From positions 44,922 through 108,921 of IMG/VR virus record IMGVR_UViG_3300045988_122191: a stretch of 64,000 nt of DNA, one strand, 5' to 3'. Within the stretch, counting starts at the first letter, position 1. Each line of letters begins with the position of its first letter. This DNA comes from a virus. Below, in pieces: positions 19,969 through 64,000 of this stretch. The notes under the pieces were generated by a model. The model did not search any database. It had not been told where the DNA came from and worked only from the letters and a program-made list of their open reading frames with translations. Both the position numbers and the translations under genes were made by a program.

Positions 19969-19977
19969 TTATAAACC

Positions 19978-20880: not shown

Positions 20881-20890
20881 ATAGCCCTCC

Positions 20891-21496: not shown

Positions 21497-21504
21497 ATTC
21501 CTCC

Positions 21505-22146: not shown

Positions 22147-22159
22147 TTAATTACCTCTT

Positions 22160-22195
22160 TCTGTTTTATTATGTTTATATTTGTGGTATCATGAA
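22160..22195 (+). promoter_or_regulatory. candidate sigma-A-like promoter for the embedded + strand gene
   Basis: Extended -10-like TGgTATCAT preceded by a T-rich -35-like region, ~25 nt upstream of the ATG at 22224. Confidence 0.25.
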
Positions 22196-22223
22196 ATCAT
22201 ACTTTCATGAAAGGAATGAGAAT

Positions 22224-22439
22224 ATGGCAAGAGCCAGAAAAACCCTGGAACAGCAGCTTATTGACATCGACGAGAAAATTGCTTTTTACGAAAACAAGAT
22301 CGCAGAGCTTAAAACGAAGCGAGAAGAGCTTCTTGCTCCGTCTCCCGCAGAAATTATCGCCATGGCCAAGGGCAAAGGCATGACCATCACCGAGATCATG
22401 GATGTGCTTGGAGTTAACCCTAACGAAACTGCTGAATAA
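22224..22439 (+). CDS. small coiled-coil protein, hypothetical (only + strand gene inside the - strand block)
   Basis: ATG after AAGGAATGAG. 71 aa with a coiled-coil N-terminus and a short helical C-terminal segment (EIIAMAKGKGMTITEIMDVLG). Convergent with flanking genes. Confidence 0.4.
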   Translation: MARARKTLEQQLIDIDEKIAFYENKIAELKTKREELLAPSPAEIIAMAKGKGMTITEIMDVLGVNPNETAE

Positions 22440-22464
22440 CTTTTAACGCGTCGCTTGTCGGTGC

Positions 22465-23637: not shown

Positions 23638-23685
23638 TCTTTTCGTTACTATACACCTCGCGTTTCGTTCGTCATATGTACGTTG

Positions 23686-24236
23686 TTAATTGACCCATCG
23701 CACAATCGGGTCGCCCTGGAATCCTTTCTCCCAGACAAACCATGCGTATGCGACGGCGTTATTCTTTCGATCAAACACACCGTTCTTGCCACAGCACACA
23801 CGCGATGAGAACACGTATATTGTTTTAGGCGGATACTTTTGAAACAGTTGCTTACGAGCCTTTCCTTCCAAGAAAGTGAGCTTCAAAAACATTGCAACCT
23901 TGTGCCCGTCTCCCACACACTCTAAAGACTTCTCAACAAATTCCCGTGCGTACTTATAGGGGGGTTGGTGATAATGTCGATGTCATCTGCCTCTGTAAAG
24001 TCCTCGTTTAAAAAATCAACAGGGGCTTTAAATCCAAAACCTCTATACACCAGGTCTGTACTTAGTACATCGTACCCTCTCTCAAGCAGGACTTTCGATA
24101 TATGGCCTTCACCACAAGCTGGTTCCCATACATCCTTAGAGAAGGTTTCGTGATCGAGCAAGATCTCCACGGCTCTTGGTTCTGTGGCGTAGTAATCGTT
24201 AGTCGCTGCGTCATCTTTTCTGTTGTTGCCAGACAA
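23686..24236 (-). pseudogene. phage Dam-family N6-adenine DNA methyltransferase, split by a frameshift at a G6/C6 homopolymer
   Basis: The upstream ORF (23922-24236) has DYYATEP and motif I WEPACGEGHI and ends ...DIDIITNPP then stops. Adding one C to the C6 run (plus-strand G6 at 23959-23964) restores NPPYKYAREF... and fuses in frame to the downstream ORF (23686-23916; ...AYAWFVWEKG). Confidence 0.6.
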
Positions 24237-24264
24237 GATGAACTGCTGTGTCCCAACCCAATCT

Positions 24265-24666
24265 TTATTCTTTATCGCTCAACAGCTCCTTTGCAAGATC
24301 TACAAACGGCTGGATGTCGTCTGCGAGAGTCCCAGGCCACCAAGGGCCATCTGCCTCGTTTGGTAGTTCTACGGCCTTGCAGACCGCCATTGCTTGATCA
24401 TACGTCATTCTGTTGCCGACCTCATCTTGAATCGCATAGCATACATCTCTAACACAGCGCGCATACCGCGCTTCTCGGTCTAGAATATCCGCGACGTACT
24501 TGGCCTCCAATTCCTCGTTTCTTTTCGCAAGCTGCTCTCTGTTCCACTTGACAGACTTGTTTTCGTCGATAATCATGTGGTCAACGTATCTATCACGCCT
24601 TGGTTTACTCCGTTGAATGCGGAATCCTTCGTCCTCAAGCGCTTTCCATGCTTCTTTGTAAACCAT
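24265..24666 (-). CDS. hypothetical protein
   Basis: 133-aa ORF; no recognisable motif. Confidence 0.4.
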   Translation of the reverse strand: MVYKEAWKALEDEGFRIQRSKPRRDRYVDHMIIDENKSVKWNREQLAKRNEELEAKYVADILDREARYARCVRDVCYAIQDEVGNRMTYDQAMAVCKAVELPNEADGPWWPGTLADDIQPFVDLAKELLSDKE

Positions 24667-24713
24667 AAATCATCCTCTCTGACCGCCGCCCGTGCGGGCG
24701 GCGGTTCTATAAA

Positions 24714-25052
24714 TCATTTATCTGTTTTGTCGTAAATCGTCTTTACGACAGTCCCAATGCGAACACTTTTAACGACCTTGTAAGGTTGTCCAGTCATTTG
24801 ATATCCAAGAAGATCCCACGTCCAAGGGATGCACCAAAGGTTATTACCAGCCTTAATGATGGTCTGCATCTCTTTAGCTGATCGGCCTTCTCCCCTTTCC
24901 ACCACATCAAATTCTTCGTACTTGCCAGGCTCTGTGTGACATCTATCATCATAACCAAGTGCTAGGTAGGAGAGTTCTTCTTCGTTAAGAGGAATGCCAT
25001 GCAGCATTTTCTCAATGATTGTCACTACCAAATCGCCTCCTCTCTTATTCAA
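24714..25052 (-). CDS. hypothetical protein (paralogue of 55850-56164)
   Basis: Shares ...G(N/D)(N/D)LW(C/A)IPW...QPY(K/R)VVK..R... with the ORF at 55850-56164. Confidence 0.45.
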   Translation of the reverse strand: MNKRGGDLVVTIIEKMLHGIPLNEEELSYLALGYDDRCHTEPGKYEEFDVVERGEGRSAKEMQTIIKAGNNLWCIPWTWDLLGYQMTGQPYKVVKSVRIGTVVKTIYDKTDK

Positions 25053-26007
25053 TCTTCACGCCGATCGACTCCAGGACTTCCTTCATCCCAAGTCCGCCTT
25101 CGTCCCAGGGCTTCATGCAATACTCCCACAGCTTCGGGTGAGTTTGCTTTAGCCGCTGGAACCGGTTCGGTTCTTTTTCCAGATGCGCCCCGAACGCGCA
25201 GAAGACGCAGCCCGTGCGAGCGCAACCAGTAGTATGTAACTTGCCCTTATCATCTTCCACAATCTCGCCATAGACCGAGGCGTAGGGGACGTTAAACCGC
25301 TTGAGATAAAGCAGCACGTCTTGCTCTGTCCAAAAGCTCATTGGTTGGGACTGTGGGTGTTTAACCTCAAAAGCGTTGCAGCCATTTACCAGCCAAGCCT
25401 GGCGACGCATAACACCTTCTTCCGCCATGGTGGCAATGATAGGGTGCTTCTTACTCGCCGTGTGGTATCGGTGTGCCGTGCTCTTCTTCATGACGTTGCA
25501 GCACTGCTTGCTCACTTTGATATGGTCGTTTTCGGGGTTGTTCACCCAGTCAACCCACCGGCGGGATAGGTTTAACCTAGCCCGCCGGTATAACGGGTGG
25601 CTCGAATCCATATAGCGTTGTGTGTAAGCGCAGCCCTTCCGGGAGTCTTCGATTAGCTGCGCGGTGTGCTTTGACCCCAACGGATACCCGTACTTCTCGA
25701 TCACCTGGCGGAAATTTATCTTCGGTTTCAGCCAAGTGACATTGTTAAACGTCTTGACAAACTCCCTAATCTCCGGGTACTCCAAGCCAGTGTCGATAAA
25801 CACTGCCTCGATGTCAGGGTAGATTCTACGGGCCATATCCAGCAGCACGGTAGAATCCTTGCCGCCAGAGAATGACACGTACACCTTGCCGTCATAGTGT
25901 TGATACCATTCGATGATGCGGGTCTGCGTGACCCGGATTTTGCGTTCTAACGGCCATGCCTGCATTTCCTTTAGGTCTTCTGGGGTGTATTTCTTTTCTT
26001 TTTCCAT
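25045..26007 (-). CDS. PAPS-reductase-like PP-loop ATP pyrophosphatase family protein (DndC-like)
   Basis: PP-loop motif VSFSGGKDSTVLL and a C-terminal Cys cluster (TTGCARTGCVFCAFG). 320 aa. Confidence 0.6.
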   Translation of the reverse strand: MEKEKKYTPEDLKEMQAWPLERKIRVTQTRIIEWYQHYDGKVYVSFSGGKDSTVLLDMARRIYPDIEAVFIDTGLEYPEIREFVKTFNNVTWLKPKINFRQVIEKYGYPLGSKHTAQLIEDSRKGCAYTQRYMDSSHPLYRRARLNLSRRWVDWVNNPENDHIKVSKQCCNVMKKSTAHRYHTASKKHPIIATMAEEGVMRRQAWLVNGCNAFEVKHPQSQPMSFWTEQDVLLYLKRFNVPYASVYGEIVEDDKGKLHTTGCARTGCVFCAFGAHLEKEPNRFQRLKQTHPKLWEYCMKPWDEGGLGMKEVLESIGVKIE

Positions 26008-26579
26008 CGGCTACCTTCTTTGCTTGTACTTCCGAACCCGCCGGTTCTTTCTTCGACACCGTACAGCTCCGCGTTTTTGTTGTCATACTCAGGAAGAGTG
26101 GAATACGGGACAATAATTCCCTGCATAAAGCCATCGTTAAAATGAAAAGTAACTGGTTCGTGGTGGTCGTGATTAAACAGCTTAGCCATGATATGTCCTT
26201 CGCTCCCAGTATCGGGGTTGTAGTAGTCACTATCAATAACGCCAACCGTGTTCGCAAGGCTTACACCGTACTTAAAACCACTGCCGCTTCTAGGGACAAT
26301 CAGGAGCACAGCCGATTCCGGCATGACAATTCTCACACCAGTGGGGATCGTGGCCGAACCGCCTGGTTGAATCGTCACGTCAAACGGGATGAAGAAATCG
26401 TACCCGGCGGAACCAGGTGTTGCCCTTGCTGGCAATCTAAATTCATCATAGGAACCCTGAATTCTTCGATTGAAGGCTGCGTCATCCTCGCAAAGACTTT
26501 GCATCTCTGGAATCTTTGCGCAGTCTGTTCTGAAGGTCTCGAAGGGAACCTTTTCAAAATAGCCTTTACATCCGATCAA
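25971..26579 (-). CDS. dut: dUTP diphosphatase (trimeric dUTPase)
   Basis: dUTPase motifs ATPGSAGYDF, PRSG, GVIDSDY and RTGGFGSTS. C-terminus overlaps the downstream start by ~37 nt. Confidence 0.8.
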   Translation of the reverse strand: MIGCKGYFEKVPFETFRTDCAKIPEMQSLCEDDAAFNRRIQGSYDEFRLPARATPGSAGYDFFIPFDVTIQPGGSATIPTGVRIVMPESAVLLIVPRSGSGFKYGVSLANTVGVIDSDYYNPDTGSEGHIMAKLFNHDHHEPVTFHFNDGFMQGIIVPYSTLPEYDNKNAELYGVEERTGGFGSTSKEGSRWKKKRNTPQKT

Positions 26580-26594
26580 TTCGTACCTCTCTTT

Positions 26595-27098
26595 CTAATC
26601 TGTAATCCATTTGACCCATACGCCATCTTGTTTTTTCCAAACAATCTGGTTACTGCTGCCTCGGAACTGAAGGGTGACATCTCGCTTGTCGATCTCAAAC
26701 TTCCCGTCTACTAAATACGTGCATCTATCTAATAGCTGAGACATATCTTTGTCTTGCTGCACCTGTCCCATTAGCAGCCCTGTGTAGCACCAGAGGTTAT
26801 CATTAGGGATATGGATCTTATCAATAATGGAAACCAGTTCCCCGGCGGAGAACATAGGGTCTCCGCCGGACAGAACCAGTGCGTTTAAAAACGGTCTTTT
26901 ATCAATCTCAAAATTGATTCTATCAATTACATCTTGTGTGATTTCAAGCCCATAATTAAAGTCATGGGTCTGTGGCGACTGACAGCCTGGGCAGTTATTT
27001 CGACACCCCGAAATAAACAGCACACAAGCTACACCCTCTGCATCACAGAAGGATTCCCAGTCATAGCCTGCGAGCTTAACCAAATAGCTCACCTGCAT
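26595..27098 (-). CDS. nrdG: anaerobic ribonucleotide reductase activating protein (radical SAM)
   Basis: CX3CX2C as GCRNNCPGC near the N-terminus. 167 aa. Immediately downstream of nrdD with a 23-nt overlap. Confidence 0.8.
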   Translation of the reverse strand: MQVSYLVKLAGYDWESFCDAEGVACVLFISGCRNNCPGCQSPQTHDFNYGLEITQDVIDRINFEIDKRPFLNALVLSGGDPMFSAGELVSIIDKIHIPNDNLWCYTGLLMGQVQQDKDMSQLLDRCTYLVDGKFEIDKRDVTLQFRGSSNQIVWKKQDGVWVKWITD

Positions 27099-29337
27099 CT
27101 TGATATGTACTATGTTTCACTCTTTCTTCTACCTCTGCTTGTTTGCCGTCGTTAAAATTGTGGTAATCAGTAGAAAGATATCCTGTTACGCGACGTAGCT
27201 GCTGGATGTTCTTGCTTCCGCATTCAGGACAACTATTATTAAACTCGCCCTGATATCCGCAATCTAAGCAACTATCAATTGGGAAATTGAAAGCAAGATA
27301 CGGAATATCAAGCTCTTTAAAAGCATAATCAATAATATCTTCCACAGCTTTAGTATTCTTTACGAAGGTGCTCGACAATTCTACGTAAGTAATAGTGCCA
27401 CCTGTCGGATACTTACAGAACGGAGCTTCAATACGAAGCTTGTCATAGATAGACACCTTTTCCCATACAGGCACATGGTGGGAGTTTGTCAGATAATCAT
27501 GAGATGTAACATCTTTAATAACACCATATTGCTCTCTAAGCGCAACCAGCGCTGTACGCGCTAATGTTTCGGCCGGAGTCGCGTAACATGAGAAATTCAG
27601 GTCATTTCGCTTAGATGCCTCTGCCGCAAACTCATTGATTCTTTTTACAACAGATAGCGCAAAGGCGTGAATATCCTTGTCGTGAACATGATTTTTCCCG
27701 AATAGCGCTTGACACATCTCTGCAACTCCAATGAAGCCTATGGCAAGCGTGTTGCCTTTTAAAGCATTAAACACGTCGTCTTCACACTCACGTGCTTTTT
27801 GGATTGTATTGTTTTCATACATAAACGGAGCAGCTTTCGGTGATTGCCGAACCATGATTTCGAACCGCTCTAGCAGCCCTCTCTCACACAGTTTTAATGT
27901 TTCCTCAAAAGCGTTCCAGAACCCGTCGAGATCTGGCTTTGTGCGCTCTCCTAGGCAAATACCAAACTCGATTCCGAGCTTCGGGAGAATAATTGTGTTG
28001 GGTACATTATTCCCTCTGCCTTGGCGGATATACCCAAGGCCATGGCGATCATACCCCAGCATAGTTCTACAACCCATGGTACTAAACCAGGTGTCCGGGT
28101 TGTCGTCGTCCTCATGCGCTTGAGACCAATCACCGTTACACCAGTTCGGGTAAATTCGTTTGCTCATTGACTTTAAGGCAAGCTGTTTGAGGTCGTAATT
28201 TTTATCTTCAGGATTTGCATTAACACCTTGCTTGTACTGGAAGATGCTAATTGGGAAGATGCTTGTCAGATGGTGTTTACCGATCCCATCTAGGCTGGCT
28301 TCAAAAACCCACTTGGTTATGAGTCGGCCTTCGACGGATGTATCTCTGCCAAGGTTGATTGACGTGAATGGCACCTGCGAACCTTGCCGTGATTCTAGTG
28401 TATTCAGGTTATGGTACAACGCCTGAGTCGATTGCTGCCCCTCTCTCTCTAACATATCCATAGCGTACTGATATGCTTTCGGGTAATATGATTTGAAAAC
28501 TGGATTGTCAATATGCCAATCATCTGTTTCAAAAATAACTATATCTCCAATTCCCCTCACAGTTGGTTCGTCGATGTATTTCTTTCCGTCTTCATAATGT
28601 TTGCGAAAGCTTTTCTTTACAAACGGAGCGAGATCCAGGTCAAAGTGTACCGTGCCGCAGCCACCGTACTGGATCTGGCTTTGGCACTGAAAAGCGACGG
28701 CGACAAGCTGACACGCTGTGCTGAAGCTTGCGGGTGGTCGCACATCTCCGTTTCTAGTGTGAAACCCGTATGTAAACAGCTCTTGGAAATTAACGTTAAG
28801 GCAATTGTGCATACCGTAAATCGCCTTCTCCAGGTCGTGCTGATAAATCAACATTTCCTTATGAGCTTTTGCTACTTCGTCAGATAGACCGCCATACTCT
28901 AAGGCAATCATCTTACCGATATCAGCAGATGCCTCTTTTTCTCTGCCTGAAAAGCTCTTCTCGTCCACATTTGCATTAGATCTATTATCTACACTGGACG
29001 TTGCGCGATCCAAAACCTTCTGAACAAGCCGTCCGTTCCGCTCTCTTACCTTCGTTCTCTCATTTCTGTATAGGATGTATGCTTTTGCCACATCTTTTCT
29101 GTCAGATTCCATAAGTTTGGCTTCAACAATATCTTGAATTTCCTCAACAGACTTGCTTTTTTTCATTTCAGCAGTCACGGCGACCGCAATTTCCTTTGCA
29201 ACAGCTGCACACTGCCCATTTTCTTCCCCATCGACGCTTACAAACGCCTTCTTTACTGCTTCTTCTATCTTTTTAGGGGAAAATTTCTCTAACCGACCGT
29301 CTCTTTTGATTACAAATAGCTCGATAATCAACCACAA
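27076..29337 (-). CDS. nrdD: anaerobic ribonucleoside-triphosphate reductase (class III)
   Basis: 753 aa with an ATP-cone-like N-terminus. C-terminal zinc ribbon CLDCGYQGEFNNSCPECG followed by the glycyl-radical region RRVTGYLS. Confidence 0.9.
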   Translation of the reverse strand: MWLIIELFVIKRDGRLEKFSPKKIEEAVKKAFVSVDGEENGQCAAVAKEIAVAVTAEMKKSKSVEEIQDIVEAKLMESDRKDVAKAYILYRNERTKVRERNGRLVQKVLDRATSSVDNRSNANVDEKSFSGREKEASADIGKMIALEYGGLSDEVAKAHKEMLIYQHDLEKAIYGMHNCLNVNFQELFTYGFHTRNGDVRPPASFSTACQLVAVAFQCQSQIQYGGCGTVHFDLDLAPFVKKSFRKHYEDGKKYIDEPTVRGIGDIVIFETDDWHIDNPVFKSYYPKAYQYAMDMLEREGQQSTQALYHNLNTLESRQGSQVPFTSINLGRDTSVEGRLITKWVFEASLDGIGKHHLTSIFPISIFQYKQGVNANPEDKNYDLKQLALKSMSKRIYPNWCNGDWSQAHEDDDNPDTWFSTMGCRTMLGYDRHGLGYIRQGRGNNVPNTIILPKLGIEFGICLGERTKPDLDGFWNAFEETLKLCERGLLERFEIMVRQSPKAAPFMYENNTIQKARECEDDVFNALKGNTLAIGFIGVAEMCQALFGKNHVHDKDIHAFALSVVKRINEFAAEASKRNDLNFSCYATPAETLARTALVALREQYGVIKDVTSHDYLTNSHHVPVWEKVSIYDKLRIEAPFCKYPTGGTITYVELSSTFVKNTKAVEDIIDYAFKELDIPYLAFNFPIDSCLDCGYQGEFNNSCPECGSKNIQQLRRVTGYLSTDYHNFNDGKQAEVEERVKHSTYQDAGELFG

Positions 29338-41374: not shown

Positions 41375-41788
41375 TCACAGTCCTTGAATCCTCTTTGACT
41401 CCTTCCATACGTCCAGGAGTTCCTCCTCTGAAAGAAGGGCGATGGCCGAGGAGGATAGGATGTTTCCAATAGCTATGCTCTTAATATCCTCCTCTTCTAG
41501 AGCACCTAGATATTTCAGCAATCTTGACTTTGACATCCTCTGCGGATTCTCACATAGGACAAGGCTATCCGCCAGCAGGTTGTATTTCTCCGCTGGCAGA
41601 AGCACATGTGTGGGTTGAGCTAGATTCTTAATTCTGGTCGTGAGCGGCAGCGCTATGACGTTCGGGCTTCTGTCATTTCCAATATCGTTTTGGAAAATGA
41701 TTCCCGGCCTGACGCCTTTCTGTTCACTGCCAACCCCACTGAAACTCATTAGATATATATCGCCTAGTCGCGGCTTATCGTATTCCAT
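41375..41788 (-). CDS. mazF: MazF/PemK/EndoA-family endoribonuclease toxin
   Basis: Near-collinear match to B. subtilis EndoA: RLGDIYLMSFSGVGSEQKGVRPGIIFQNDIGNDRSPNVIALPLTT...PTHVLL. RBS GAAGGAG. Confidence 0.8.
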   Translation of the reverse strand: MEYDKPRLGDIYLMSFSGVGSEQKGVRPGIIFQNDIGNDRSPNVIALPLTTRIKNLAQPTHVLLPAEKYNLLADSLVLCENPQRMSKSRLLKYLGALEEEDIKSIAIGNILSSSAIALLSEEELLDVWKESKRIQGL

Positions 41789-42021: not shown

Positions 42022-42309
42022 TTATTCCACCGCCTCCAACCTTTTTAATCCAAGAGTTTTAATAACAACGTATACTGCGGACGGCGTCACCTTGATCTTT
42101 CTTGCGATATCACTGGCGCTCATCCCGTCTAGATACAAAGACGCCACTTCGTCAATATCAATCTTAATACGGCCATCTCTCACTTTGCTCTTTCGCTTTC
42201 TATGTACCTGCTCATTCGGGCGATTCTGCGCTACCCACTGACCATAACTCAAACCAGCTTCCTTAGCCGCAGCCGCCACTTCATCAATTGTCATTGGATT
42301 GCAGCTCAT
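42022..42309 (-). CDS. HTH DNA-binding protein
   Basis: Start chosen at MSCNPMTIDEV after GAAGGAGAGGA. HTH-like MSASDIARKIKVTPSAVYVVIK. Confidence 0.4.
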   Translation of the reverse strand: MSCNPMTIDEVAAAAKEAGLSYGQWVAQNRPNEQVHRKRKSKVRDGRIKIDIDEVASLYLDGMSASDIARKIKVTPSAVYVVIKTLGLKRLEAVE

Positions 42310-43843
42310 AATACTTATCCTCTCCTTCGGTATCTTCATCGTTATTGTCCTTCTGGCTACCAGCGGCGACCTTCCCGCCAATCAGCCCGGAAATCAACGC
42401 GTTAATGTCAAGACCAGTCGAACTCTTAACACCCTCAGTTACCTGAGTCATCGTATTCATGATGTTGTTTGCAAGCTGGCCTGAGGCGTCACCAAACATC
42501 TTAATTTCCCCGACGTTGGCATAGCCATCACCAATTGCCGCAGCGATCTTAGGTAACTGCTCGAAATATACTTTCAGTGTGTCGAGTTCCATCTGCTGCT
42601 TTGCCGCATCGCCATACTCCTTCATTGCTTCTGCCTTCTTCAGAATACCAGCAGCCTCTGCTTCTGCCTTCGCCTTGATCGCCTCAGCTTCTGCAACACC
42701 CTTAGCGGAAATTGCATCAGCCTCCGCAATACCAGCAGCTCTTACAGCCTCTGCTTCCTGTTCCTTTGCAAATCTCTCTGCTTCTGCGCGAGCTTTCTGA
42801 GCTTCCGCCTCCTTCTGGGTCTCAAAGAGTTCTGCCTCTGCCTGCTTCTGTCGTTCGTACTGGTCTGCGTCCGCCTTCTGCTGGGCTGCATACTTCTCTG
42901 CTTCAGCCTGCTTCTTAACAGTAGCCTCCAGCACTTTCTCCTTAATCGCAACCTCTCGTTCCTTTAGCTCAATCTCTTTCTCCTGTCGAGCCAGGTTTGC
43001 GTTAGCGGTTGCAATCTCTACGGTACGGCGCTGCTCTTCCTTCTGAATGTCGTAAGCTGCTTCCGCCTCTGCTCTCTTGGAGTCGGCCTGCTTCAGCAGC
43101 TCGGACTTCTTAATAGCAAGTTCGTTCTGCCGCTCTGCAATTTCCGTGTCGCTCTTAACACGAGCATCATTCGCTTCACGCTCTGCCACCGCGTTTGCAA
43201 TAGCGACTTCCTTATCTGCGTTCGCCTTTGCAATAGCTGCATCCTTTTTAATCTGAGAGATGTTGTCAATGCCAAGATCTTCAATGACATGGTTTGCGTC
43301 AGAGAACCGCTGCACGTTAAATGAAACCAGTTCAAGACCCATCTTTTGCAGGTCGGGGATTACGTTTTCAGAAACTTTCTCGACGAAAGTTTTACGATCT
43401 CCAATCAGTTCCCGCAGCTTCATTGTGCAGATAATCTCTCTGATATTACCTTCAAGAACTTCAGCGACAATCGCCCCGACCTCTTCGCTGGTCTTATTCA
43501 GGAAATTCTTTGCCGCGACCTCGACCATCTCCGGTGTAGAACCAATCTTCACGTTAACAGCAGAATCAACGTAGATATTGATACAGTCTGCTGTCGGCAC
43601 TGCATCCCCAGTTCTAATGTCCAGAGGGATCAGCTTGAGAGAAAGCTCGTCCACCCGTTCAAAGAAAGGAATCTTCACGCCAGCTTTACCAATAAGAACC
43701 TTCGGCTTCTTTCTTACGCCGGAGATAATCAGCGCTTTGTCGGGCGGAGCCTTCACATATCCTCTAGCAAGAACACCGGCGACACCAACTGCCGCTACAA
43801 CAGGCACCGCAACTGTGAGACCACTCATAAGTTCAGTAATCAT
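42284..43843 (-). CDS. SPFH/flotillin-like protein (YqiK/FloT family)
   Basis: N-terminal hydrophobic segment, SPFH core, then a long Ala/Glu/Lys-rich coiled coil and C-terminal region. 519 aa. Confidence 0.75.
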   Translation of the reverse strand: MITELMSGLTVAVPVVAAVGVAGVLARGYVKAPPDKALIISGVRKKPKVLIGKAGVKIPFFERVDELSLKLIPLDIRTGDAVPTADCINIYVDSAVNVKIGSTPEMVEVAAKNFLNKTSEEVGAIVAEVLEGNIREIICTMKLRELIGDRKTFVEKVSENVIPDLQKMGLELVSFNVQRFSDANHVIEDLGIDNISQIKKDAAIAKANADKEVAIANAVAEREANDARVKSDTEIAERQNELAIKKSELLKQADSKRAEAEAAYDIQKEEQRRTVEIATANANLARQEKEIELKEREVAIKEKVLEATVKKQAEAEKYAAQQKADADQYERQKQAEAELFETQKEAEAQKARAEAERFAKEQEAEAVRAAGIAEADAISAKGVAEAEAIKAKAEAEAAGILKKAEAMKEYGDAAKQQMELDTLKVYFEQLPKIAAAIGDGYANVGEIKMFGDASGQLANNIMNTMTQVTEGVKSSTGLDINALISGLIGGKVAAGSQKDNNDEDTEGEDKYYELQSNDN

Positions 43844-45946: not shown

Positions 45947-46147
45947 TCATTTCTTCGTCCCGCCTTTCAGCAACTCCTTCAGCTTTCTAGAGATGACGTA
46001 CCACAAGAAAATTGCCCCAGCTGGCATAAGAATCACCACAGTAACAGTCGCAAACAATTCCGAAACATACTGCCCCAAAAGAAAGAGGACGGCAATGATC
46101 AACGCTAACGTGATCGCCGTCCAAACTCCAACAATTTTTTCTTTCAT
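45947..46147 (-). CDS. small membrane protein
   Basis: 66 aa with two hydrophobic helices. Confidence 0.35.
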   Translation of the reverse strand: MKEKIVGVWTAITLALIIAVLFLLGQYVSELFATVTVVILMPAGAIFLWYVISRKLKELLKGGTKK

Positions 46148-46156
46148 ATGTCCTCC

Positions 46157-46510
46157 TTAGCAAGCAATCTTACTAACCTCGATTGCTGTTGTACGGATAA
46201 ATTTTTTCAGTGTTATATCTCCGGTTCTATAGAAGTCCTCATCCGGAAACAGATCGTACAGATACTGAATTGGCTGCTTTACATCCAGCATACTTACTAC
46301 GTTCCTTTGCATAGCTTTTTCTACAGACTTGAATGACGCCCCGTATTTACACCCAAGATCCATGATGAGTTCTTTCAGTTCAAACCCGTAGAAATCCTTC
46401 TCCTCTGCTACCGCACATATCGCATCCTGCAGGTATCCAGCTCCACGCTGCGAAAACCTGCAACCTAAAGCTTGTAGTAGGTCTGCCGTTACAGCACGTA
46501 CTTTATTCAC
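46157..46510 (-). CDS. stand-alone Spo0A C-terminal (DNA-binding) domain homologue
   Basis: Aligns with Spo0A-C over VTADLLQALG....GAGYLQDAICAV (hIGxxxxxKGYxYLxxAI) and ...YGASFKSVEKAMQRNV (the NTTASRVERAIRHAI recognition helix). No receiver domain. Confidence 0.55.
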   Translation of the reverse strand: MNKVRAVTADLLQALGCRFSQRGAGYLQDAICAVAEEKDFYGFELKELIMDLGCKYGASFKSVEKAMQRNVVSMLDVKQPIQYLYDLFPDEDFYRTGDITLKKFIRTTAIEVSKIAC

Positions 46511-46522
46511 TTACCCAGCTCC

Positions 46523-46789
46523 TTAGCGAGCTACAGACACCTGCCGCCCATCGGAGCAAGCATCGCGACACTCTTCACACTTTACACAGTCCTCTTTTAG
46601 CCACACATTAAAAAGTGTGCATTTTGGCACATGATATTCTGTCGGAGCTTTCTTACCGTGCGTGCGATTTCTTCGTCTATGATATTTACACACATACTTC
46701 CCATAAAAGTCTCCACCGTAAGTGCAGTTATTTTCGTCTGGTGACACATTATGTTCAACTGTAATTCTCGTCATTGTTTCAAAATTCAT
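46523..46789 (-). CDS. Cys-rich hypothetical protein
   Basis: Start moved to an internal Met (MNFETMTR). CVKCEECRDAC cluster. Confidence 0.3.
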   Translation of the reverse strand: MNFETMTRITVEHNVSPDENNCTYGGDFYGKYVCKYHRRRNRTHGKKAPTEYHVPKCTLFNVWLKEDCVKCEECRDACSDGRQVSVAR

Positions 46790-49446: not shown

Positions 49447-50211
49447 TCAGCATGAGTTTTCCATTCGTGCTCGCTGACCTGATACATCTTTACACAGCAA
49501 ACTACCTCTCCTCTGACACATAGGAAGATCATTCCAGTTGATACCCCTCTCCGCCATCAGCATGTCCAAGATATCGCTACAAGACTTATGGTCTAATTCA
49601 CGATGGCTGAAATTTGCCCTGCCAACCATCTGGACGCTGTTCCTGATGGCGTCCAACTGTCTCCAATAAATAAGATTTGCCACATCTTCTTTGGGGATAT
49701 TAAACACTCTTGCATCAAACATAGCCCCTCTATCTTCTGCACGACTATAAGTCCAACTCAACTTCAGCAAATCCTTATCGACAGGATCATTTGTGCCGCC
49801 TTCATCCCAGTACGGGAACCTCTCTCTGCCCCACTCGTCTCGACGCTTTGCAAATGCTTTGTTAAACGCCAGGGTAGCCATACTCGCTGCCACGCTGCAC
49901 ATTTTCTGCACCTCATAACCAAACCAAGCAGCAGAATTAAGATTCTTATAGTCTACAAGAATTAACGTGATTTCATCGGATTGAGTGTAGCCAAACACCA
50001 CACCCTGGATGTTCTCACAGAGATACTTCATTGTATCTTGCATTGATTTGATCAGCACATCATCAAAAGGCTTTTGAAAACCTTTTGTGAAAGTGTGAAA
50101 CGCTTTACCATCCAGTCTGATCGCAACCGGCGTTCTTCGCATTAGCTTTGTCTTCGGAATGCTTTCGTAGTACGCTTTCATTCTGTCGCCGAGCGCATCT
50201 TTTACCGACAT
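49447..50211 (-). CDS. Thg1-like protein (tRNA 3'-5' nucleotidyltransferase / tRNA-His guanylyltransferase family)
   Basis: N-terminal Thg1 core RLDGKAFHTFTKGF...VVFGYTQSDEITLIL, with the palm carboxylates. Start chosen at M11, 6 nt after GAGGTG. Confidence 0.6.
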   Translation of the reverse strand: MSVKDALGDRMKAYYESIPKTKLMRRTPVAIRLDGKAFHTFTKGFQKPFDDVLIKSMQDTMKYLCENIQGVVFGYTQSDEITLILVDYKNLNSAAWFGYEVQKMCSVAASMATLAFNKAFAKRRDEWGRERFPYWDEGGTNDPVDKDLLKLSWTYSRAEDRGAMFDARVFNIPKEDVANLIYWRQLDAIRNSVQMVGRANFSHRELDHKSCSDILDMLMAERGINWNDLPMCQRRGSLLCKDVSGQRARMENSC

Positions 50212-50227
50212 AATATTCACCTCGTCT

Positions 50228-50458
50228 TTACCTATCTTCACTAGTCTTTCTACGCATTACCAACTCAAACTCTGTGCTTGGATATGTAATAGAGTATTCT
50301 TCATTGCCATTCATATTTCCAATAAACCATTCAAATACAGCCGCAATAGCTTTATCAGTTACATCTTCCTTCTTTCCAGTCCACATTTGTTTTTCTGGAT
50401 TTTGTGTTCCAAAATAAATAGTATTTGTAATTGGGCTAACTCCAAATCCTTTCGCCAT
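50228..50458 (-). CDS. hypothetical protein
   Basis: 76-aa ORF. Confidence 0.3.
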   Translation of the reverse strand: MAKGFGVSPITNTIYFGTQNPEKQMWTGKKEDVTDKAIAAVFEWFIGNMNGNEEYSITYPSTEFELVMRRKTSEDR

Positions 50459-50481
50459 AGCTTATACCTCACTTATACCTT

Positions 50482-50718
50482 TCAATCCCTTACAAAAACC
50501 TGGCCACATTTTTTACAATAACAAAGAGTCTTTTTCTTATATCCTCTATCCCAAGACCAAACGACAGAATCTTTGATATCATAATCAGCGTCGCAGCAGT
50601 ATGATAACTTTGCAAACTCATGCTCGCATTTTCCATTCTTGACATTCATAATTTCTATCTGCTTTCTGATCTCTTCAACTTCTTTTAAAATCCTTGCAAT
50701 AATATATGTTTTTCTCAT
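50482..50718 (-). CDS. small zinc-ribbon protein
   Basis: CEHEF...CYCKKCG pattern. Confidence 0.3.
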   Translation of the reverse strand: MRKTYIIARILKEVEEIRKQIEIMNVKNGKCEHEFAKLSYCCDADYDIKDSVVWSWDRGYKKKTLCYCKKCGQVFVRD

Positions 50719-50829
50719 GGGTTATCCTTTTTAACTATCGACTCATCTCCGACCTGACACATAGTCTACTACCACAGCTACAGCCAGCTACCATGTCTAC
50801 TGCTAAAGTTTTTTATATCCAGCGTCTCA

Positions 50830-51045
50830 TCAATCAGTTTCAAATCCAATCGTACGAATATAATGTTCTTTAGAACATAAATCAAGACCCAGTTGTTCTT
50901 TAATAATATATCTGTCCCAAAGACAACAAGTTACACATTCTTCATTTACTTCTGACACAAATCCTATAGGTATATTATTAATAGTCACAGGAATATTTAC
51001 AGCACTTTCTCCATAAGAACCGTCATTTTTAAAATATACTTCCAT
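50830..51045 (-). CDS. hypothetical protein
   Basis: 71-aa ORF in the AT-rich block. Confidence 0.3.
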   Translation of the reverse strand: MEVYFKNDGSYGESAVNIPVTINNIPIGFVSEVNEECVTCCLWDRYIIKEQLGLDLCSKEHYIRTIGFETD

Positions 51046-51168
51046 TATTCTTTTCCTTTCATTTTCTCAAACATCAACATTCCAAAATAAATTTCAAACA
51101 AAGTTCTTGCCATAGAAAATCCACAATGACGAACTGGAACACTAATTGGCACACTAAAACCATGCTTT

Positions 51169-52062
51169 TTAATAGTTGCTCAAAATCTTTTGAAACATTC
51201 CATCAATACTGTCCATAATTGGGTACCTCTCAGTTGCCAAAGAATTCTTGCCAAAAGTTCCATCCACCATATCAATATAAAAAGTATAATTCCCGTCATC
51301 GCCCATATAGAATTCCTCCCACTGTTCTTTGGGTAAATGCTCTTGTACATGGAACTGCTTAATTGCAAGATTGTCAAAACTTACAACCTTAAACCAACTC
51401 TTATCAATAATTTCAGGGAACAAATATTTATCCAAATCTTCTTGCAAAGCATTTACAATCTCATCATTCTGCTCATAGTAACTTTCTCCACGACGAAGAT
51501 TCTTATAGCCAAGGATAAGAACTTTAAGATTATGCCCTGCAAGACGCGATAAGTCATACACAGATACCATACCATTAATCACATGAATGACGGCATTAGG
51601 AAGTTGAGTAATCATGTTAATAAATTTATCCGTAGGTTCTTTCAGAGATACACCGAGGCCATAAATTAAACCATCATCAATCCACTCTTTGATAACATTG
51701 AAATGTTTTTCAAAATGAATCTGATTAACAGTCATATTCAGAATGATTTTCTTATCTCTCATCTTATACATAAAAGGAACTAAATCAGGATGAGATAAAT
51801 CGTTCCCATTGATGGCAAGTTCGGTATAAGGATGTAGAGTATCTAAGAACTTATAATTCAAAATATCTCCATGTCTGCCGTTAGGAGTACACCCTTCATA
51901 GCAGAACGGACATCCACCATCACATTTATCAGTAATTTTAACATCACAGTTTTCCGCAAAAGAAGGAATAAATTCATTATCATTTGTCTCTCTAATCTTA
52001 GTACCGTCTGACAACAAAGTTACAACATAATCACCATTCTTATACTTACCAATAATATTCAT
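51169..52062 (-). CDS. radical SAM protein
   Basis: CX3CX2C as CDGGCPFC near residue 45. 297 aa, in the AT-rich block. Confidence 0.55.
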   Translation of the reverse strand: MNIIGKYKNGDYVVTLLSDGTKIRETNDNEFIPSFAENCDVKITDKCDGGCPFCYEGCTPNGRHGDILNYKFLDTLHPYTELAINGNDLSHPDLVPFMYKMRDKKIILNMTVNQIHFEKHFNVIKEWIDDGLIYGLGVSLKEPTDKFINMITQLPNAVIHVINGMVSVYDLSRLAGHNLKVLILGYKNLRRGESYYEQNDEIVNALQEDLDKYLFPEIIDKSWFKVVSFDNLAIKQFHVQEHLPKEQWEEFYMGDDGNYTFYIDMVDGTFGKNSLATERYPIMDSIDGMFQKILSNY

Positions 52063-52074
52063 TTTTAAATCTCC

Positions 52075-52371
52075 TTAATCATGTCCATAATAACCAAATG
52101 CGACAACTTCATCTCCGCCAGGAGTTGTATAATGCTGTTCAAATGTTTCAAGCCATCCATTTTTAAAAAATTCTCCATAAGTTTCAATACCTTCATCTGA
52201 AAAAATATTATTAACTTTATATTCATCGTCCCAATTCACATCAGAAAACCAGGGATTCTTTTTTAGTTCTTCAATAATTTCTTCTCTTGTGGCAAACTTT
52301 TCATCCTCTTCCCAAAATAGGACTTCTCCTTTTTCCCATTTATCGTATTCTTCATTAGAACACATTGTCAA
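52075..52371 (-). CDS. hypothetical acidic protein
   Basis: 98-aa ORF. Confidence 0.35.
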   Translation of the reverse strand: MTMCSNEEYDKWEKGEVLFWEEDEKFATREEIIEELKKNPWFSDVNWDDEYKVNNIFSDEGIETYGEFFKNGWLETFEQHYTTPGGDEVVAFGYYGHD

Positions 52372-52440
52372 ACTGTGTACAGAAGAGCTATTAGTTTCAA
52401 AACTCCTCGTCTAATTTGTTTCTTCATAAAATTTTCCTCT

Positions 52441-53094
52441 TTAATTTCTCTTATAAAAATAGTCGTAATTTTCAGAATCATGATACGGATTTAGTACTTC
52501 GACATATTCTCCGTGTTCATCTTCTGTCCAGCAATATTCATTTGCGATATTACATCCGCCAGGGTCATCATCTTGATTGTCGTTACCGGTATATACAGCA
52601 CTATCGCCAAATAAATATCTCATAAGTAAATCTTCGTCATTAAGAACCGCAAGAACAAATTCTCTGGTTTCATACGCATGGTCGATATATCCACAATCAA
52701 TACTAAGCCAAATATGTTTTCCGTCATTAGACTTTTCATATTTCGGTTTTTCAAATTTATATTTAATCGAATGATTGTTAAGAATATCTTTTAATTTATC
52801 AAGTAATTCGTCTCTATCATCCTGTTCAAGAATTGCTGTGTATAGATAGTTTGCTGTATCAACACAATCATTTTCCCAACCAAATTTTCCAATGCTAAAA
52901 CTAATATATTCACCAGCTACAACAGGCTTCTTTGGAATCGCAATGCTATGAGTGCTACTTGAATTAGTTTCAAATACACCACTTCTAATTTGTCTTTTCA
53001 TATGAATTTGTTCCTGTTCAATCTCCGAAATAGGGTTTTTATAATCATCATAAAAATTGTACACAAAACACCTCTTAAAATACTTTCTTCTCAA
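52441..53094 (-). CDS. hypothetical protein
   Basis: 217-aa ORF. Confidence 0.4.
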   Translation of the reverse strand: MRRKYFKRCFVYNFYDDYKNPISEIEQEQIHMKRQIRSGVFETNSSSTHSIAIPKKPVVAGEYISFSIGKFGWENDCVDTANYLYTAILEQDDRDELLDKLKDILNNHSIKYKFEKPKYEKSNDGKHIWLSIDCGYIDHAYETREFVLAVLNDEDLLMRYLFGDSAVYTGNDNQDDDPGGCNIANEYCWTEDEHGEYVEVLNPYHDSENYDYFYKRN

Positions 53095-53659
53095 TCAGTT
53101 TATTCAGTACGTCAGTTACATCTTTATTCGCCTGCGCTACCTTAACACAGTTGTTATTGATGATAATCTTGTACGCTTCACTCAACTCTTCTAGGTTCTT
53201 GATCTCAGATCTTCTTTCTTTAATCTGGGCATCTGCCTCATCAATCATTTTCCTATACATGTCAGACTCTTCCTGCACTTGCTTCTGAACATCCTCCAGA
53301 GTTGCCTTAGTAGAGTTCAATTTATCCAGCATTTTAGTTACATATGTATTGTTAAATTCATCACCTAAACCAAGGTCGATCTTGTAAAGAGTCACGACAA
53401 CCTTTTCTCGTTCGTCTACAAGGAGCACCCAAGTATCTTGCACATAAACGTCAATTACTTTGCCCTTGCCATCCTTCTGAGATTGTCTGCCTGAATAAAT
53501 ACAACTGCCGTATTCTATCATCTTGTTAATATCTGTCTTAATCTTATCTTCATTCAGAGAAACAAAACGAGCAGCGTCTGGCTTCTCCCTTTTACCCATA
53601 ACGCGTTCCGCGTAACGAGTTTTACAATGCGATGATACTTGATACTTTACATTTTCCAT
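53075..53659 (-). CDS. hypothetical protein (N-terminal alpha/beta domain plus C-terminal coiled coil)
   Basis: 194-aa ORF. Confidence 0.4.
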   Translation of the reverse strand: MENVKYQVSSHCKTRYAERVMGKREKPDAARFVSLNEDKIKTDINKMIEYGSCIYSGRQSQKDGKGKVIDVYVQDTWVLLVDEREKVVVTLYKIDLGLGDEFNNTYVTKMLDKLNSTKATLEDVQKQVQEESDMYRKMIDEADAQIKERRSEIKNLEELSEAYKIIINNNCVKVAQANKDVTDVLNKLIEKKVF

Positions 53660-53687
53660 GTACTATCCTCAAACCTTATTTTAATTT

Positions 53688-54023
53688 TCAAATAGAAATC
53701 TCAATCAAGAAATCATAAACTTTATCCCACGATGATAGGTCGATGTACTCTTTTTTCTCCTCCCCGTGTGAGACAAATACATCTCCGATCTTAAAATCCT
53801 TTAGCCAGTCTTTCTCATAAATGCAATAACTAACCCAATGTTCGTCATCGTGCATCGCGTCTTCGATCAGTTGTATTGCTATGTCGAAAATATCCGTAAT
53901 GTAGAGGCCGCAGAAATCAGGATTAAGTTTTTTCATGGCAGAGTCCACTGCGTTCATCCTGCTATCCAAATCCATTAGCCTTTTCATAATGCTAACAAAA
54001 ATTTCTTTTGTCATATTAGCCAC
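53688..54023 (-). CDS. hypothetical protein
   Basis: 111-aa ORF. Confidence 0.35.
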   Translation of the reverse strand: MANMTKEIFVSIMKRLMDLDSRMNAVDSAMKKLNPDFCGLYITDIFDIAIQLIEDAMHDDEHWVSYCIYEKDWLKDFKIGDVFVSHGEEKKEYIDLSSWDKVYDFLIEISI

Positions 54024-56848: not shown

Positions 56849-57053
56849 TCTTTCTTTTCACCTCTTCCTTCTTTAATAACTCAGCCTTTCTTCTTGCTCT
56901 TCTAATTACATCTCCGGCGGCCAGCGAAAGCGCGTATTTTTGGAATGGGCGTAGCTTCATTCCAGTTAGGTTACACCACCACTCAATATCTTTTTCTCGT
57001 TTTCTGCATCTCATCACACCACCATCACAATCCATGTTAAAATAATCTGACAA
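56817..57053 (-). CDS. hypothetical protein
   Basis: 78-aa ORF. Confidence 0.3.
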   Translation of the reverse strand: MSDYFNMDCDGGVMRCRKREKDIEWWCNLTGMKLRPFQKYALSLAAGDVIRRARRKAELLKKEEVKRKNEANQKLNSM

Positions 57054-57391
57054 ATATGAACCAGCTGATCCTGAACCAGGTTGATTTTCTTAAAGTTCGC
57101 CTTCAAGTCGTCAACACAAAAGTGAATAACGCAGTTCACTACCAGCATAACAAAAAACAGAACCGGTAGATTGAGCTTCAGATAAACCGCCACCGGCAGT
57201 ATCGTCATGAACGTCCAGCTAGAAGCGTGCATAAACAGTGCTGCGATATAGTCATGCTTGTACTTCTCTCCAGGAGAGTTCTTTCTCCACCAATCCTTCT
57301 GCTTCATACTGGCAAGCACACCTTGCAGATAATAGTCATCTACAATGTGAGCAAACAGCATTACCAATAACACAAATAACTTAGCCTGCAT
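57014..57391 (-). CDS. membrane protein (3-4 TM helices)
   Basis: Hydrophobic helices throughout 125 aa. Confidence 0.4.
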   Translation of the reverse strand: MQAKLFVLLVMLFAHIVDDYYLQGVLASMKQKDWWRKNSPGEKYKHDYIAALFMHASSWTFMTILPVAVYLKLNLPVLFFVMLVVNCVIHFCVDDLKANFKKINLVQDQLVHICQIILTWIVMVV

Positions 57392-57394
57392 TCA

Positions 57395-58363
57395 TCACAC
57401 CTCCGTAGCACCAGCAGAAATCAGAGCATTCCCGCAAGTAATTCTATCGCTGTCCTCTTCCTTGCTCGGGACAAACACGATGACATCCCAACCGGCGTCA
57501 ACCAGTGGCTGTTCAAATTTCCGGTAAACATCGTAATTCGTGTAGGTAGTAGACACGTCGAATCCATTCTGAACCGCAGAGTTTGTCTCGTGAATAGGCG
57601 TAATCTTAACGATGAACTTATCCTTGCTAAATAGCTCCCCCAGTCTAACAGGATCAATAATTGTATCGGCAGTCACTGCAAAATTCAGAGTGTACTTTCT
57701 CCCTACCGGATCAGGAAGCCCCCTTGCAATCTTAGAAATCTCATCCAGGCTGAGGCTCATGCCGCTGAACTGCTCCTCTCGTTGCTTATCGTCCGTACTG
57801 TTGATACTAAACTGCAGTCCTGCTTCGCCACCGTACCAACGATTCTTAACTCTACACCACACCATAAGGAACAACTTTAGGTGCGGATTATTCTTCGGTA
57901 ACATCGTAGAAACAACCGGGTGAATTGTTTTAGCGGTGATATACTTTCCTACCAGAGGTTTAAGCTCATCACGCGCAAAGAAAATAACGTCAGAATTAAA
58001 TGTTGGCTCGCCCATTCTTGCAAAATGCACGTTAAACCTATCCGTGTATTTAGTAGACTCGCCTTTTAGGATCGTTTCAATCTCATACTTGAGATCTTCG
58101 AGAGAAGCATTACCGTGAAATCCGTACTTTGGACAATCACAAAACTTGCATTTCATTGGGCACCCTTTCTGGGTGCTGATTGTTGCGACCCATTTCTTAC
58201 TGAGGTCAACCGGCTTGTTCTCTACGCCATTGATTTCCTTATGCAACCCAAGGAAATCTGCCTTAATATTATTCTCTTTACCGTAGTCTCCGACGGTCAG
58301 AAACTCCAGCTGTCTTTCTTCATCAACGTAAATCTTACCGGTGTGGGTGTTAACAATTCTCAT
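57395..58363 (-). CDS. radical SAM protein
   Basis: CX3CX2C as CPMKCKFC near residue 68. 322 aa. Confidence 0.55.
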   Translation of the reverse strand: MRIVNTHTGKIYVDEERQLEFLTVGDYGKENNIKADFLGLHKEINGVENKPVDLSKKWVATISTQKGCPMKCKFCDCPKYGFHGNASLEDLKYEIETILKGESTKYTDRFNVHFARMGEPTFNSDVIFFARDELKPLVGKYITAKTIHPVVSTMLPKNNPHLKLFLMVWCRVKNRWYGGEAGLQFSINSTDDKQREEQFSGMSLSLDEISKIARGLPDPVGRKYTLNFAVTADTIIDPVRLGELFSKDKFIVKITPIHETNSAVQNGFDVSTTYTNYDVYRKFEQPLVDAGWDVIVFVPSKEEDSDRITCGNALISAGATEV

Positions 58364-62543: not shown

Positions 62544-63716
62544 TTAGTTTTTGAGATCCTTCTTCATCGTGGCTTCAATATCAAAGCCAAACTTCTGACT
62601 ATAGCGAGTGATAACTCCATCAATACTTCCTCTGTTAACCATTCGATAGTAGCTCATAAGACCGAGCACATATTGCAGTTGCTCAAGAGGCCAATAAGTT
62701 CCGCTCTTTCTGTCCTTCGCGTAATTGAAAAGCATCGCCTCGAAGTTGCGCTTCTTCTTATACCCAATCGTGATCTGGTTGTCCTTGTTGATCATCACAC
62801 CGAGTACCCAATTCTTATGATACGAGGGGCCGTAATGAGTTTTCTCATCTTTGATGAGATAACTGGCCCCGAAAAGTCTAAACAGATTTTCAATCTTTCT
62901 GATAATGAAGCTCTTATCAAACTCAATACCACAGCTGATGTTCATATCATCAGCATATCTGGTATACGCGAACCTTCTACCCTTTTCATCAGGGTTGTTT
63001 TCCGGGTTCTGCAGGCTACGCAGAAACTTACTGAACTCAAAATCAAACGGAATCATAATCAGATTGGTCAGCATCGGGCTGATCGGCGTTCCCATAGGTA
63101 GACCTCCATCCAGGAAGCAAAGCGACAGAGCTTTTCTAAGCTCTTCTCTCCCGCTTTTGCACTCCATAATGAGACAGAACGGGTAAATCATAGACAGCGC
63201 GTTCCATACAAACTCCGGAGTGGTATTAGGAAAGAAACCGCTGATGTCAGTCTTTAAATACCACTTGCTCTTATTCCACTGATGGACTTTTGCGGCGTCT
63301 ACACTACTTCTGTTTTTGACATAAGCGTATGCAGCGGCATGGCTGCTCGCATAAAACTCAGATTCTAACAGCAGTTTTAGCTCTCGCAGACAATTCATCA
63401 GCTCGTCGTCCGGCGCGTTAATCTCTCTCATGCCGCCGCTCTTTTTCGGGATAAAAAACTTGTGGTAATGCTCACGAATATCACTCTCCATCAGGCCATG
63501 GTGTTTCTTGTTGAATGTTCTTAACAAACCAATCTTTTTCTCAACATCAAACCCCGCTAAAATTCTTTCAGGAAGTCGCTCATATGTAAATGTTCTAGTA
63601 TACGGAGATCTTGGTGTTCGCTCCCGCACATTCTCACCTTGGAATAATGCGAGCATAATATCTTCTAAAGCAATTTGCTTGTACGGCTCTGTAATTCTAA
63701 CTGTTACATAAATCAT
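62544..63716 (-). CDS. reverse transcriptase, retron-type (or retron-like Abi/DRT)
   Basis: RT motifs 1/2 KKSGGMREINAP and motif 3 WYLKTDISGFFPNT. Pre-motif YAYVKNRSSVDAAKVH (cf. retron ...RSI.TNA..H). Motif 4 GLPMGTPISPMLTNL. Motif 5 YTRYADDMNIS. Thumb region VLGVMINKDNQITIGYKKKRNFEA (cf. the retron VTG...KR pattern). RBS AAGGAGA. Confidence 0.75.
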   Translation of the reverse strand: MIYVTVRITEPYKQIALEDIMLALFQGENVRERTPRSPYTRTFTYERLPERILAGFDVEKKIGLLRTFNKKHHGLMESDIREHYHKFFIPKKSGGMREINAPDDELMNCLRELKLLLESEFYASSHAAAYAYVKNRSSVDAAKVHQWNKSKWYLKTDISGFFPNTTPEFVWNALSMIYPFCLIMECKSGREELRKALSLCFLDGGLPMGTPISPMLTNLIMIPFDFEFSKFLRSLQNPENNPDEKGRRFAYTRYADDMNISCGIEFDKSFIIRKIENLFRLFGASYLIKDEKTHYGPSYHKNWVLGVMINKDNQITIGYKKKRNFEAMLFNYAKDRKSGTYWPLEQLQYVLGLMSYYRMVNRGSIDGVITRYSQKFGFDIEATMKKDLKN

Positions 63717-63820: not shown

Positions 63821-64000
63821 TGTTCGCCAGGATGTCGCTGCAGGTGGCGGATGTCGAACTTGTCGAACGAATATCCTTCTCGTTTTTTTTTGTTGGGAGG
63901 CTGCTCCTCATCAGAGAAGGGCTGTTTCTCATCAGAGAAGGGCTGTTTCTCGTCAGAGAAGATGCAACCTGGGTTGTTAAGCCTTCTTGGAGGTAGCAGA
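63821..64000 (-). CDS. 3' end of an upstream ORF (5' end lies beyond the window) with tandem PFSDEKQ repeats
   Basis: - strand frame open from the window edge: ...FSDEKQPFSDEKQPFSDEEQPPNKKKREGYSFDKFDIRHLQRHPGEQ*. Encoded by a 21-bp tandem repeat at 63903-63962. Confidence 0.35.
63903..63962. repeat. 21-bp tandem direct repeat (~2.7 copies)
   Basis: catcagagaagggctgtttct repeated; lies within the ORF upstream of the RT. Confidence 0.7.

Follow-up and report, generated by a model that had tools for sequence, protein, structure and literature searches.

How phages control the dormancy of their hosts is an active question, and phage-borne copies of the sporulation regulator Spo0A that lack its receiver domain are the most direct candidates for such control. 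Truncated spo0A homologues have been reported from gut phages (Schwartz et al. 2023, mBio 14:e00182-23, PMC10294663). Specifically, 29 human-gut virome sequences align to the C-terminal domain of Spo0A only, and the truncated products have been proposed to act without the normal host signals (PMC10294663). The literature searched yielded no experimental test of function for any truncated phage spo0A homologue.

A further gene of this kind, encoding a stand-alone protein of 117 residues, lies in an IMG/VR virus record (IMGVR_UViG_3300045988_122191, positions 44,922 to 108,921; this stretch of 64,000 nucleotides is the window, and positions given here are those within it). The initial annotation read the product as a binder of the 0A box that could constitutively mimic or compete with Spo0A of the host, an idea that is not new and corresponds to the hypothesis of Schwartz et al. 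2023 (PMC10294663). The locus thereby raises the question of whether such a gene can be read in this way, or whether the Spo0A effector domain has been put to a different use in this phage.

The phage and its probable host

The source of the window is a temperate siphophage of about 106 kb, in which the 117-aa gene belongs to the leftward early/replication operon. Structural and lysis functions are represented by a tape measure protein of 2475 residues and a GH25 endolysin with a PG_binding_1 domain, lysogeny by a tyrosine integrase and a Tn916-type excisionase, and replication by a DNA polymerase III alpha-like protein, a primase-helicase, an ERF recombinase and an NAD-dependent ligase. Further genes encode a methyltransferase, an anaerobic NrdD, ThyX, SHMT, two SPFH/flotillin proteins, a PemK toxin, a Thg1-like enzyme and a reverse transcriptase. 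The suggestion in the initial annotation that the gene is encoded by a phage agrees with these surrounding hallmark genes.

Sequence comparisons indicate that the host is likely to be found among the gut Clostridia. The closest integrases (37-43% identity) belong to Lachnospiraceae, Oscillospiraceae and Bacillota gut MAGs, and the closest polymerases of cultured phages (35-39%) to C. difficile and Bacillus phages. None of the GTDB species genomes scanned with the 117-aa protein carries the gene, and neither tRNA genes nor other sporulation genes were found in the window. The nucleotide-metabolism block with its anaerobic NrdD (Table 1) fits a strictly anaerobic host.

The reverse transcriptase (Pfam RVT_1, 50 bits; PHROG 2825) may belong to a diversity-generating system, to a retron-like defence or to a group II intron; a search of the window for repeat pairs of the type seen with diversity-generating reverse transcriptases found none. 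The two SPFH/Band-7 flotillin-like proteins, the larger of which also matches the Flotillin domain, are unusual phage cargo. The early region furthermore holds a Thg1-like tRNA-His guanylyltransferase, a PemK/MazF-type toxin next to which no antitoxin was evident, and a radical-SAM protein that forms a pair with a DUF3307 protein. Also within this region, G+C falls to 0.35 at 50001-54000, compared with about 0.44 elsewhere in the window, and this segment may have been acquired recently.

Table 1 Features of the 117-aa locus and of the surrounding window
Feature	Position	Strand	Basis or remark
Spo0A_C-fold stand-alone CDS, 117 aa, GTG start, receiver-less	46157..46510	-	ORF, Pfam, HMM, fold, dN/dS
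Predicted helix-turn-helix, residues 45-75 (equivalents of Spo0A alpha-C and alpha-D)	46286..46378	-	model and alignment
Shine-Dalgarno AAGGAG	46519..46524	-	8 nt 5' of GTG; read from sequence
66-aa protein, two predicted membrane-spanning segments	45947..46147	-	directly downstream of the Spo0A_C-like gene
Nucleotide-metabolism block	19228-29337		ThyX, SHMT (GlyA-like), PAPS-reductase-like, nucleotide-kinase-like, anaerobic NrdD
SPFH/Band-7 flotillin-like protein	19978-20880	-	
SPFH/Band-7 flotillin-like protein (larger)	42284-43843	-	
PemK/MazF-type toxin	41375-41788	-	early region
Thg1-like tRNA-His guanylyltransferase	49447-50241	-	early region
Radical-SAM protein paired with DUF3307 protein	57014-58363	-	early region
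Reverse transcriptase	62544-63716	-	Pfam, PHROG

A receiver-less homologue of the Spo0A effector domain

The 117-aa protein is a true homologue of the Spo0A effector domain that lacks the receiver. The HMMER search against Spo0A_C that the initial annotation had proposed as a check places it above the threshold, with 32.8 bits against a gathering cut-off of 25 (Pfam PF08769, E=7.2e-8) and a match that spans residues 10-109 of the protein and positions 3-101 of the 104 in the profile. A second HMM was derived from Spo0A C-domains and canonical stand-alone homologues, with neither the target nor its nearest relative among the sequences. Against this independent model the protein scores 39.9 bits, compared with 7.8 bits for the best of 2000 shuffles of its own sequence. 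A single-sequence phmmer search of the PDB sequences gives a weak match (E=0.075 for 1fc3), and a profile of the target and its relatives matches 1fc3 and 1lq1 over the whole domain with E of about 4e-19; since this last profile includes canonical members, the independent HMM serves as its control.

The structural comparison points the same way. The AlphaFold2 model, the input alignment of which contained family members, has a mean pLDDT of 86.6 and seven helical segments, and a Foldseek search of the PDB with this predicted fold finds 1fc3 and 1lq1 only (TM 0.73-0.84, rmsd 2.1-3.1 Å), the next structure following at E 0.6. In BFVD, the model matches only five proteins of uncultured phages, which are already named 'Spo0A C terminal' (UniProt, BFVD). 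The protein is accordingly predicted to adopt the six-helix effector-domain fold with its helix-turn-helix, in common with the Spo0A C-domains of B. subtilis and G. stearothermophilus (1LQ1, 1FC3). It keeps their hydrophobic core together with G165, G172, Y175, L176, A179 and I180, as well as V212, E213, A215, F236, F252, I253 and A257. Unlike Spo0A, to which its identity is about 21%, it has no receiver and so no phosphorylation control. Specifically, no receiver domain precedes the effector domain, since the protein begins about eight residues ahead of it, and the full-length Spo0A equivalog TIGR02875 (NCBIfam) scores 20 bits against a cut-off of 200. Both central structural claims of the initial annotation, an effector-domain homologue and the absence of a phosphoacceptor receiver, are borne out by these data.

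The gene starts with GTG at 46510-46508 on the minus strand, and the sequence upstream of it on the coding strand reads CTAAGGAGCTGGGTAAGTG. Its Shine-Dalgarno sequence overlaps the TAA stop of the preceding gene, an arrangement that suggests translational coupling inside a long operon. Since the gene lies within an array of tightly packed minus-strand genes that extends from about 17.7 kb to the window end, and since a promoter and terminator scan around it gave no signal above shuffle level, it would most simply be an internal cistron of such an operon.

The recognition helix

In the AlphaFold2 model, the helix-turn-helix consists of helices at residues 45-56 and 60-75, the latter being the recognition helix, SFKSVEKAMQRNVVSML. 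The whole helix-turn-helix was aligned residue by residue to positions 194-224 of B. subtilis Spo0A; the numbering follows the B. subtilis sequence, which is identical to the 1lq1 chain segment over residues 157-260. The stretch S210-R-V-E-R-A-I-R-H218 of Spo0A reads K-S-V-E-K-A-M-Q-R in the 117-aa protein. Among the exposed positions of the signature SRVERAIRHAIE (S210, R211, E213, R214, R217, H218 and E221), only E213 is kept, the comparison with B. subtilis Spo0A giving S210K, R211S, E213E, R214K, R217Q, H218R and E221V. Identities or similarities within the helix fall on V212, A215, I216 (as M) and I220 (as V), which from their periodicity would form its buried face. As such, the recognition-helix match described in the initial annotation stands for its identical V, E and A; the rest of SRVERAIRH differs, and the V and A positions are those expected to be buried. 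A lack of conservation among the contact residues had been named there as an observation that would speak against that reading, and it is largely what the helix displays, with R211S, R214K, R217Q and H218R beside the retained E213.

The divergence extends to the sigma-A-activating helix, residues 227-240 of B. subtilis Spo0A: L235 and F236 alone survive among its 14 positions in the 117-aa protein. In the Spo0A-DNA complex of Zhao et al. 2002, the base contacts are reportedly made by E213, R214 and R217. The specific contacts of Spo0A are with G2, C4 and G5 of TGTCGAA, and all DNA-contacting residues are common to Bacillus and C. difficile Spo0A (PMC3485338).

Phage-borne homologues elsewhere adhere to the Spo0A residues. 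Stand-alone Spo0A_C genes occur in at least 295 IMG/VR contigs and in 14 GenBank 'Bacteriophage sp.' records from human faeces, and in about 50 of 82 profile matches (80 kept loci) the domain begins no later than residue 20 of a product 86-135 aa long. Of the 80 other phage-borne homologues surveyed in IMG/VR, all keep H218, and 79 keep the Spo0A residue at each of E213, R214 and R217; the survey is biased towards canonical helices through its seeding, as 54 of its members matched a recognition-helix search pattern and are conserved by construction. The other 26 loci, found without this pattern, still keep the residues at E213, R214, R217 and H218.

The class described by Schwartz et al. 2023 is likewise encoded by phages, which infect gut Firmicutes, and comprises an effector domain without a receiver. 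Its recognition helix is nearly letter for letter that of Spo0A (TTxSRVERAIRHAIE), from which the 117-aa protein and its relative P0004 differ. The 117-aa protein is a divergent addition to this class of phage genes published in 2023.

One other stand-alone Spo0A_C protein (P0005) is encoded at 773-1132 of a 3.1-kb contig in a Treponema MAG (L030; GCA_017622735.1, JAGAQQ010000033.1), where its gene adjoins genes for a phage pRha, a Cro/CI-type HTH protein, YqaJ and RecT. Treponema is not a spore former, and either the contig is mis-binned phage DNA or Spo0A_C genes are not confined to the phages of spore formers.

0A boxes and the search for an operator

TGTCGAA, the consensus 0A box, shows no enrichment in the window, with 10 sites observed and 9.99 expected. 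Exact boxes in putative intergenic DNA number two, at 26052 and 26999, which is within chance. The relaxed pattern TGNCGAA occurs 55 times against 35.6 expected from dinucleotide shuffles, an excess that was discounted, since nearly all of these sites are intragenic and such shuffles do not model codon structure.

A pair of tandem consensus boxes with a 9-bp period is present at 63852-63867 (63852/63861; TGTCGAAcTTGTCGAA), and a 21-bp sequence repeated three times in tandem (CATCAGAGAAGGGCTGTTTCT) follows at about 63903-63965. A minus-strand ORF that is cut off by the end of the window contains the two features and reads them as ...FDKFD... and as repeats of FSDEKQP. The box pair was rejected as a regulatory site, as it is coding (FDKFD) and probably a coincidence.

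A k-mer search of intergenic DNA returned the 8-mer CGCAAAGA/TCTTTGCG, which occurs eight times in the window, six of them in putative intergenic DNA; copies lie at 26489-26520, where a pair forms an inverted repeat, and at 13607, 14146, 17393 and 41868. It was set aside as a candidate operator because its copies share no longer consensus and part of the DNA counted as intergenic may be coding. No convincing operator motif for the 117-aa protein emerged from this search of the window.

A faithful mimic of Spo0A?

The reading closest to the initial annotation is that of a faithful mimic or competitor, which would bind host 0A boxes without phosphorylation, activate the Spo0A regulon or, given that the activation surface is missing, block it, and so force or prevent sporulation. 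Such a protein would be built much like this one, a true effector-domain homologue without a receiver that shares its architecture with the published phage spo0A homologues (PMC10294663). The isolated Spo0A DNA-binding domain, moreover, binds legitimate targets without phosphorylation (PMC3485338). The retained E213, the lysine at position 214 and a likely host among the gut Clostridia, many of which sporulate (the nearest integrases being in Lachnospiraceae and Oscillospiraceae MAGs), are also compatible with it. However, a mimic should keep the residues of the host factor at E213, R214, R217 and H218, as at least 79 of the 80 other phage copies do, whereas four of five otherwise near-invariant exposed helix residues differ here (R211S, R214K, R217Q, H218R). 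The relative P0004 presents yet another set at the exposed positions, a third one (S-K-R-W-K-K-D), and no companion sporulation gene was found in the window. With most of the exposed helix residues replaced, the sigma-A helix diverged and TGTCGAA unenriched, the claim of a constitutive 0A-box mimic or competitor finds no support, and we consider it unlikely for this protein.

The comparison with laboratory constructs is instructive in the same respect. An N-terminally deleted, constitutive Spo0A allele, sad67, is said to have been described by Ireton et al. 1993, and a proteolytic Spo0A DNA-binding domain reportedly by Grimsley et al. 1994; PMC10294663 cites both works. The isolated DNA-binding domain and N-terminally deleted alleles have in common with the phage protein the principle that removal of the receiver leaves a phosphorylation-independent, DNA-binding-competent domain (PMC3485338). 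They differ in that these constructs retain the wild-type recognition helix and bind 0A boxes, whereas the 117-aa protein has a different reading face.

Relatives, selective constraint and gene order

Close relatives of the protein are few. A tblastn search of 50,697 phage records gave no match, and an exhaustive phmmer search of 1.8 billion representative proteins found five relatives only. Together, word-indexed and exhaustive phmmer searches recovered its own cluster and three stand-alone relatives, plus P0006, which was rejected as a spurious repeat protein. The sole near relative among the 1.8 billion representative proteins is P0004, with 38% identity; common to both are an N-terminal LLQxLGCxFSQxG and a C-terminal TLKxFIxxxAxEVSKxxC. 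Where the context of relatives was examined, all lie in phage early, replication or recombination modules.

The gene recurs nearly unchanged (89-98% identity) and in the same gene order in IMG/VR viral contigs of 106-107 kb and in Logan contigs. The gene is real and under purifying selection: across the window and five homologous phage contigs (six sequences), dN/dS is 0.02-0.12 with dS up to 0.69. Substitutions are concentrated in residues 51-58 and the N-terminus, leaving the recognition helix and the C-terminal half almost unchanged. Even at this level of synonymous divergence, the helix sequence SFKSVEKAMQR is invariant among the five phage homologues.

The gene for the 66-aa membrane protein (Table 1) also stands 3' of the Spo0A_C homologue in three other loci (L001-L003) and follows P0004 in L025 (1100-1300), where its product is 64% identical to the window copy. 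Between these distant phages, the 66-aa protein is better conserved (64%) than the Spo0A_C-like protein (38%). It matched nothing in Pfam or PHROG; among ten small ORFs of the neighbourhood scanned against these databases, a single weak match below threshold was obtained, and none that was informative. The helix residues of P0004 and the 64% identical downstream protein together indicate that the gene pair is conserved while the reading face changes.

Constraint within the lineage also bears on a reading in which the protein does not bind DNA at all. The Spo0A_C scaffold could have been kept to bind a protein partner, making the product a decoy that inhibits in a dominant-negative manner or modulates RNA polymerase; candidate partners would be the Spo0A receiver, a second Spo0A effector domain on tandem boxes, or region 4 of sigma-A or sigma-H. 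The isoelectric points of the 117-aa protein (6.3) and P0004 (5.5), compared with 7.8-9.1 for canonical Spo0A_C domains, would suit such a protein, and the two are best conserved in the N-terminal helix and loop and the C-terminal helix rather than in the recognition helix. Yet within the lineage the invariance of the recognition helix implies that it is functionally constrained, and the sigma-A-contact helix has itself diverged. As this reading is also purely inferential, we regard it as improbable, more so than the mimic.

That the gene is a spurious ORF, or what is left of a decaying, once captured piece of spo0A, is scarcely credible. Its low identity to Spo0A and its small number of relatives would fit such an origin, but the dN/dS values effectively refute it. 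A strong ribosome-binding site, a GTG start and full length kept in five related phage contigs, a confident full-domain model and conserved synteny in at least seven contigs also count against it.

Proposed role

To our knowledge, the Spo0A_C fold has elsewhere been described only in the reading of 0A boxes by endospore formers. For the 117-aa protein, the reading that we favour is a predicted DNA-binding regulator of this fold that is independent of phosphorylation, altered in specificity and made early in infection, a proposal that we hold to be evenly poised between right and wrong. The unphosphorylated receiver of Spo0A keeps the effector domain from acting, and once isolated, the effector domain needs no phosphorylation to bind DNA (PMC3485338). 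Because the phage protein has no receiver, by analogy with this isolated domain it would be active once made, independently of host kinases or the phosphorelay.

The target site would most likely differ from TGTCGAA, the consensus 0A box, and the protein would most likely lack Spo0A's mode of recruiting RNA polymerase, because the helix face is rewritten (R211S, R214K, R217Q, H218R, E221V) and the sigma-A helix is not conserved. The product would then be an early regulator particular to this phage lineage, which had captured a Spo0A effector domain for the purpose, and it would occupy operator-like sites of its own in the phage or the host. A reading face that is fixed within a lineage and different between lineages argues for a regulator that co-evolves with its own operators, not for mimicry of a host factor that does not vary. 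A degree of cross-talk with 0A-like sites and sporulation is nevertheless possible, because E213 is kept and the replacement of Arg214 by Lys is conservative. The isoelectric points of the protein and of P0004, in turn, fit a weak DNA binder or a non-binder and count against the regulator reading.

In evolutionary terms, a Spo0A effector domain may have been captured and its reading face re-tooled for a new specificity, perhaps in conjunction with the 66-aa membrane protein, or the product may be a dominant-negative anti-Spo0A; this account is tentative, its chances falling somewhat short of even.

Implications

Taken alone, the 117-aa gene is an annotation-level result within an already published class. 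Its value lies mainly in the contrast that it provides, as a Spo0A_C gene in a phage does not by itself signify a 0A-box mimic. The copies that keep the canonical SRVERAIRH are the better candidates for the hijacking of sporulation and for experiments directed at it. The divergent lineage, in turn, may show the Spo0A fold in the course of evolving a new DNA specificity.
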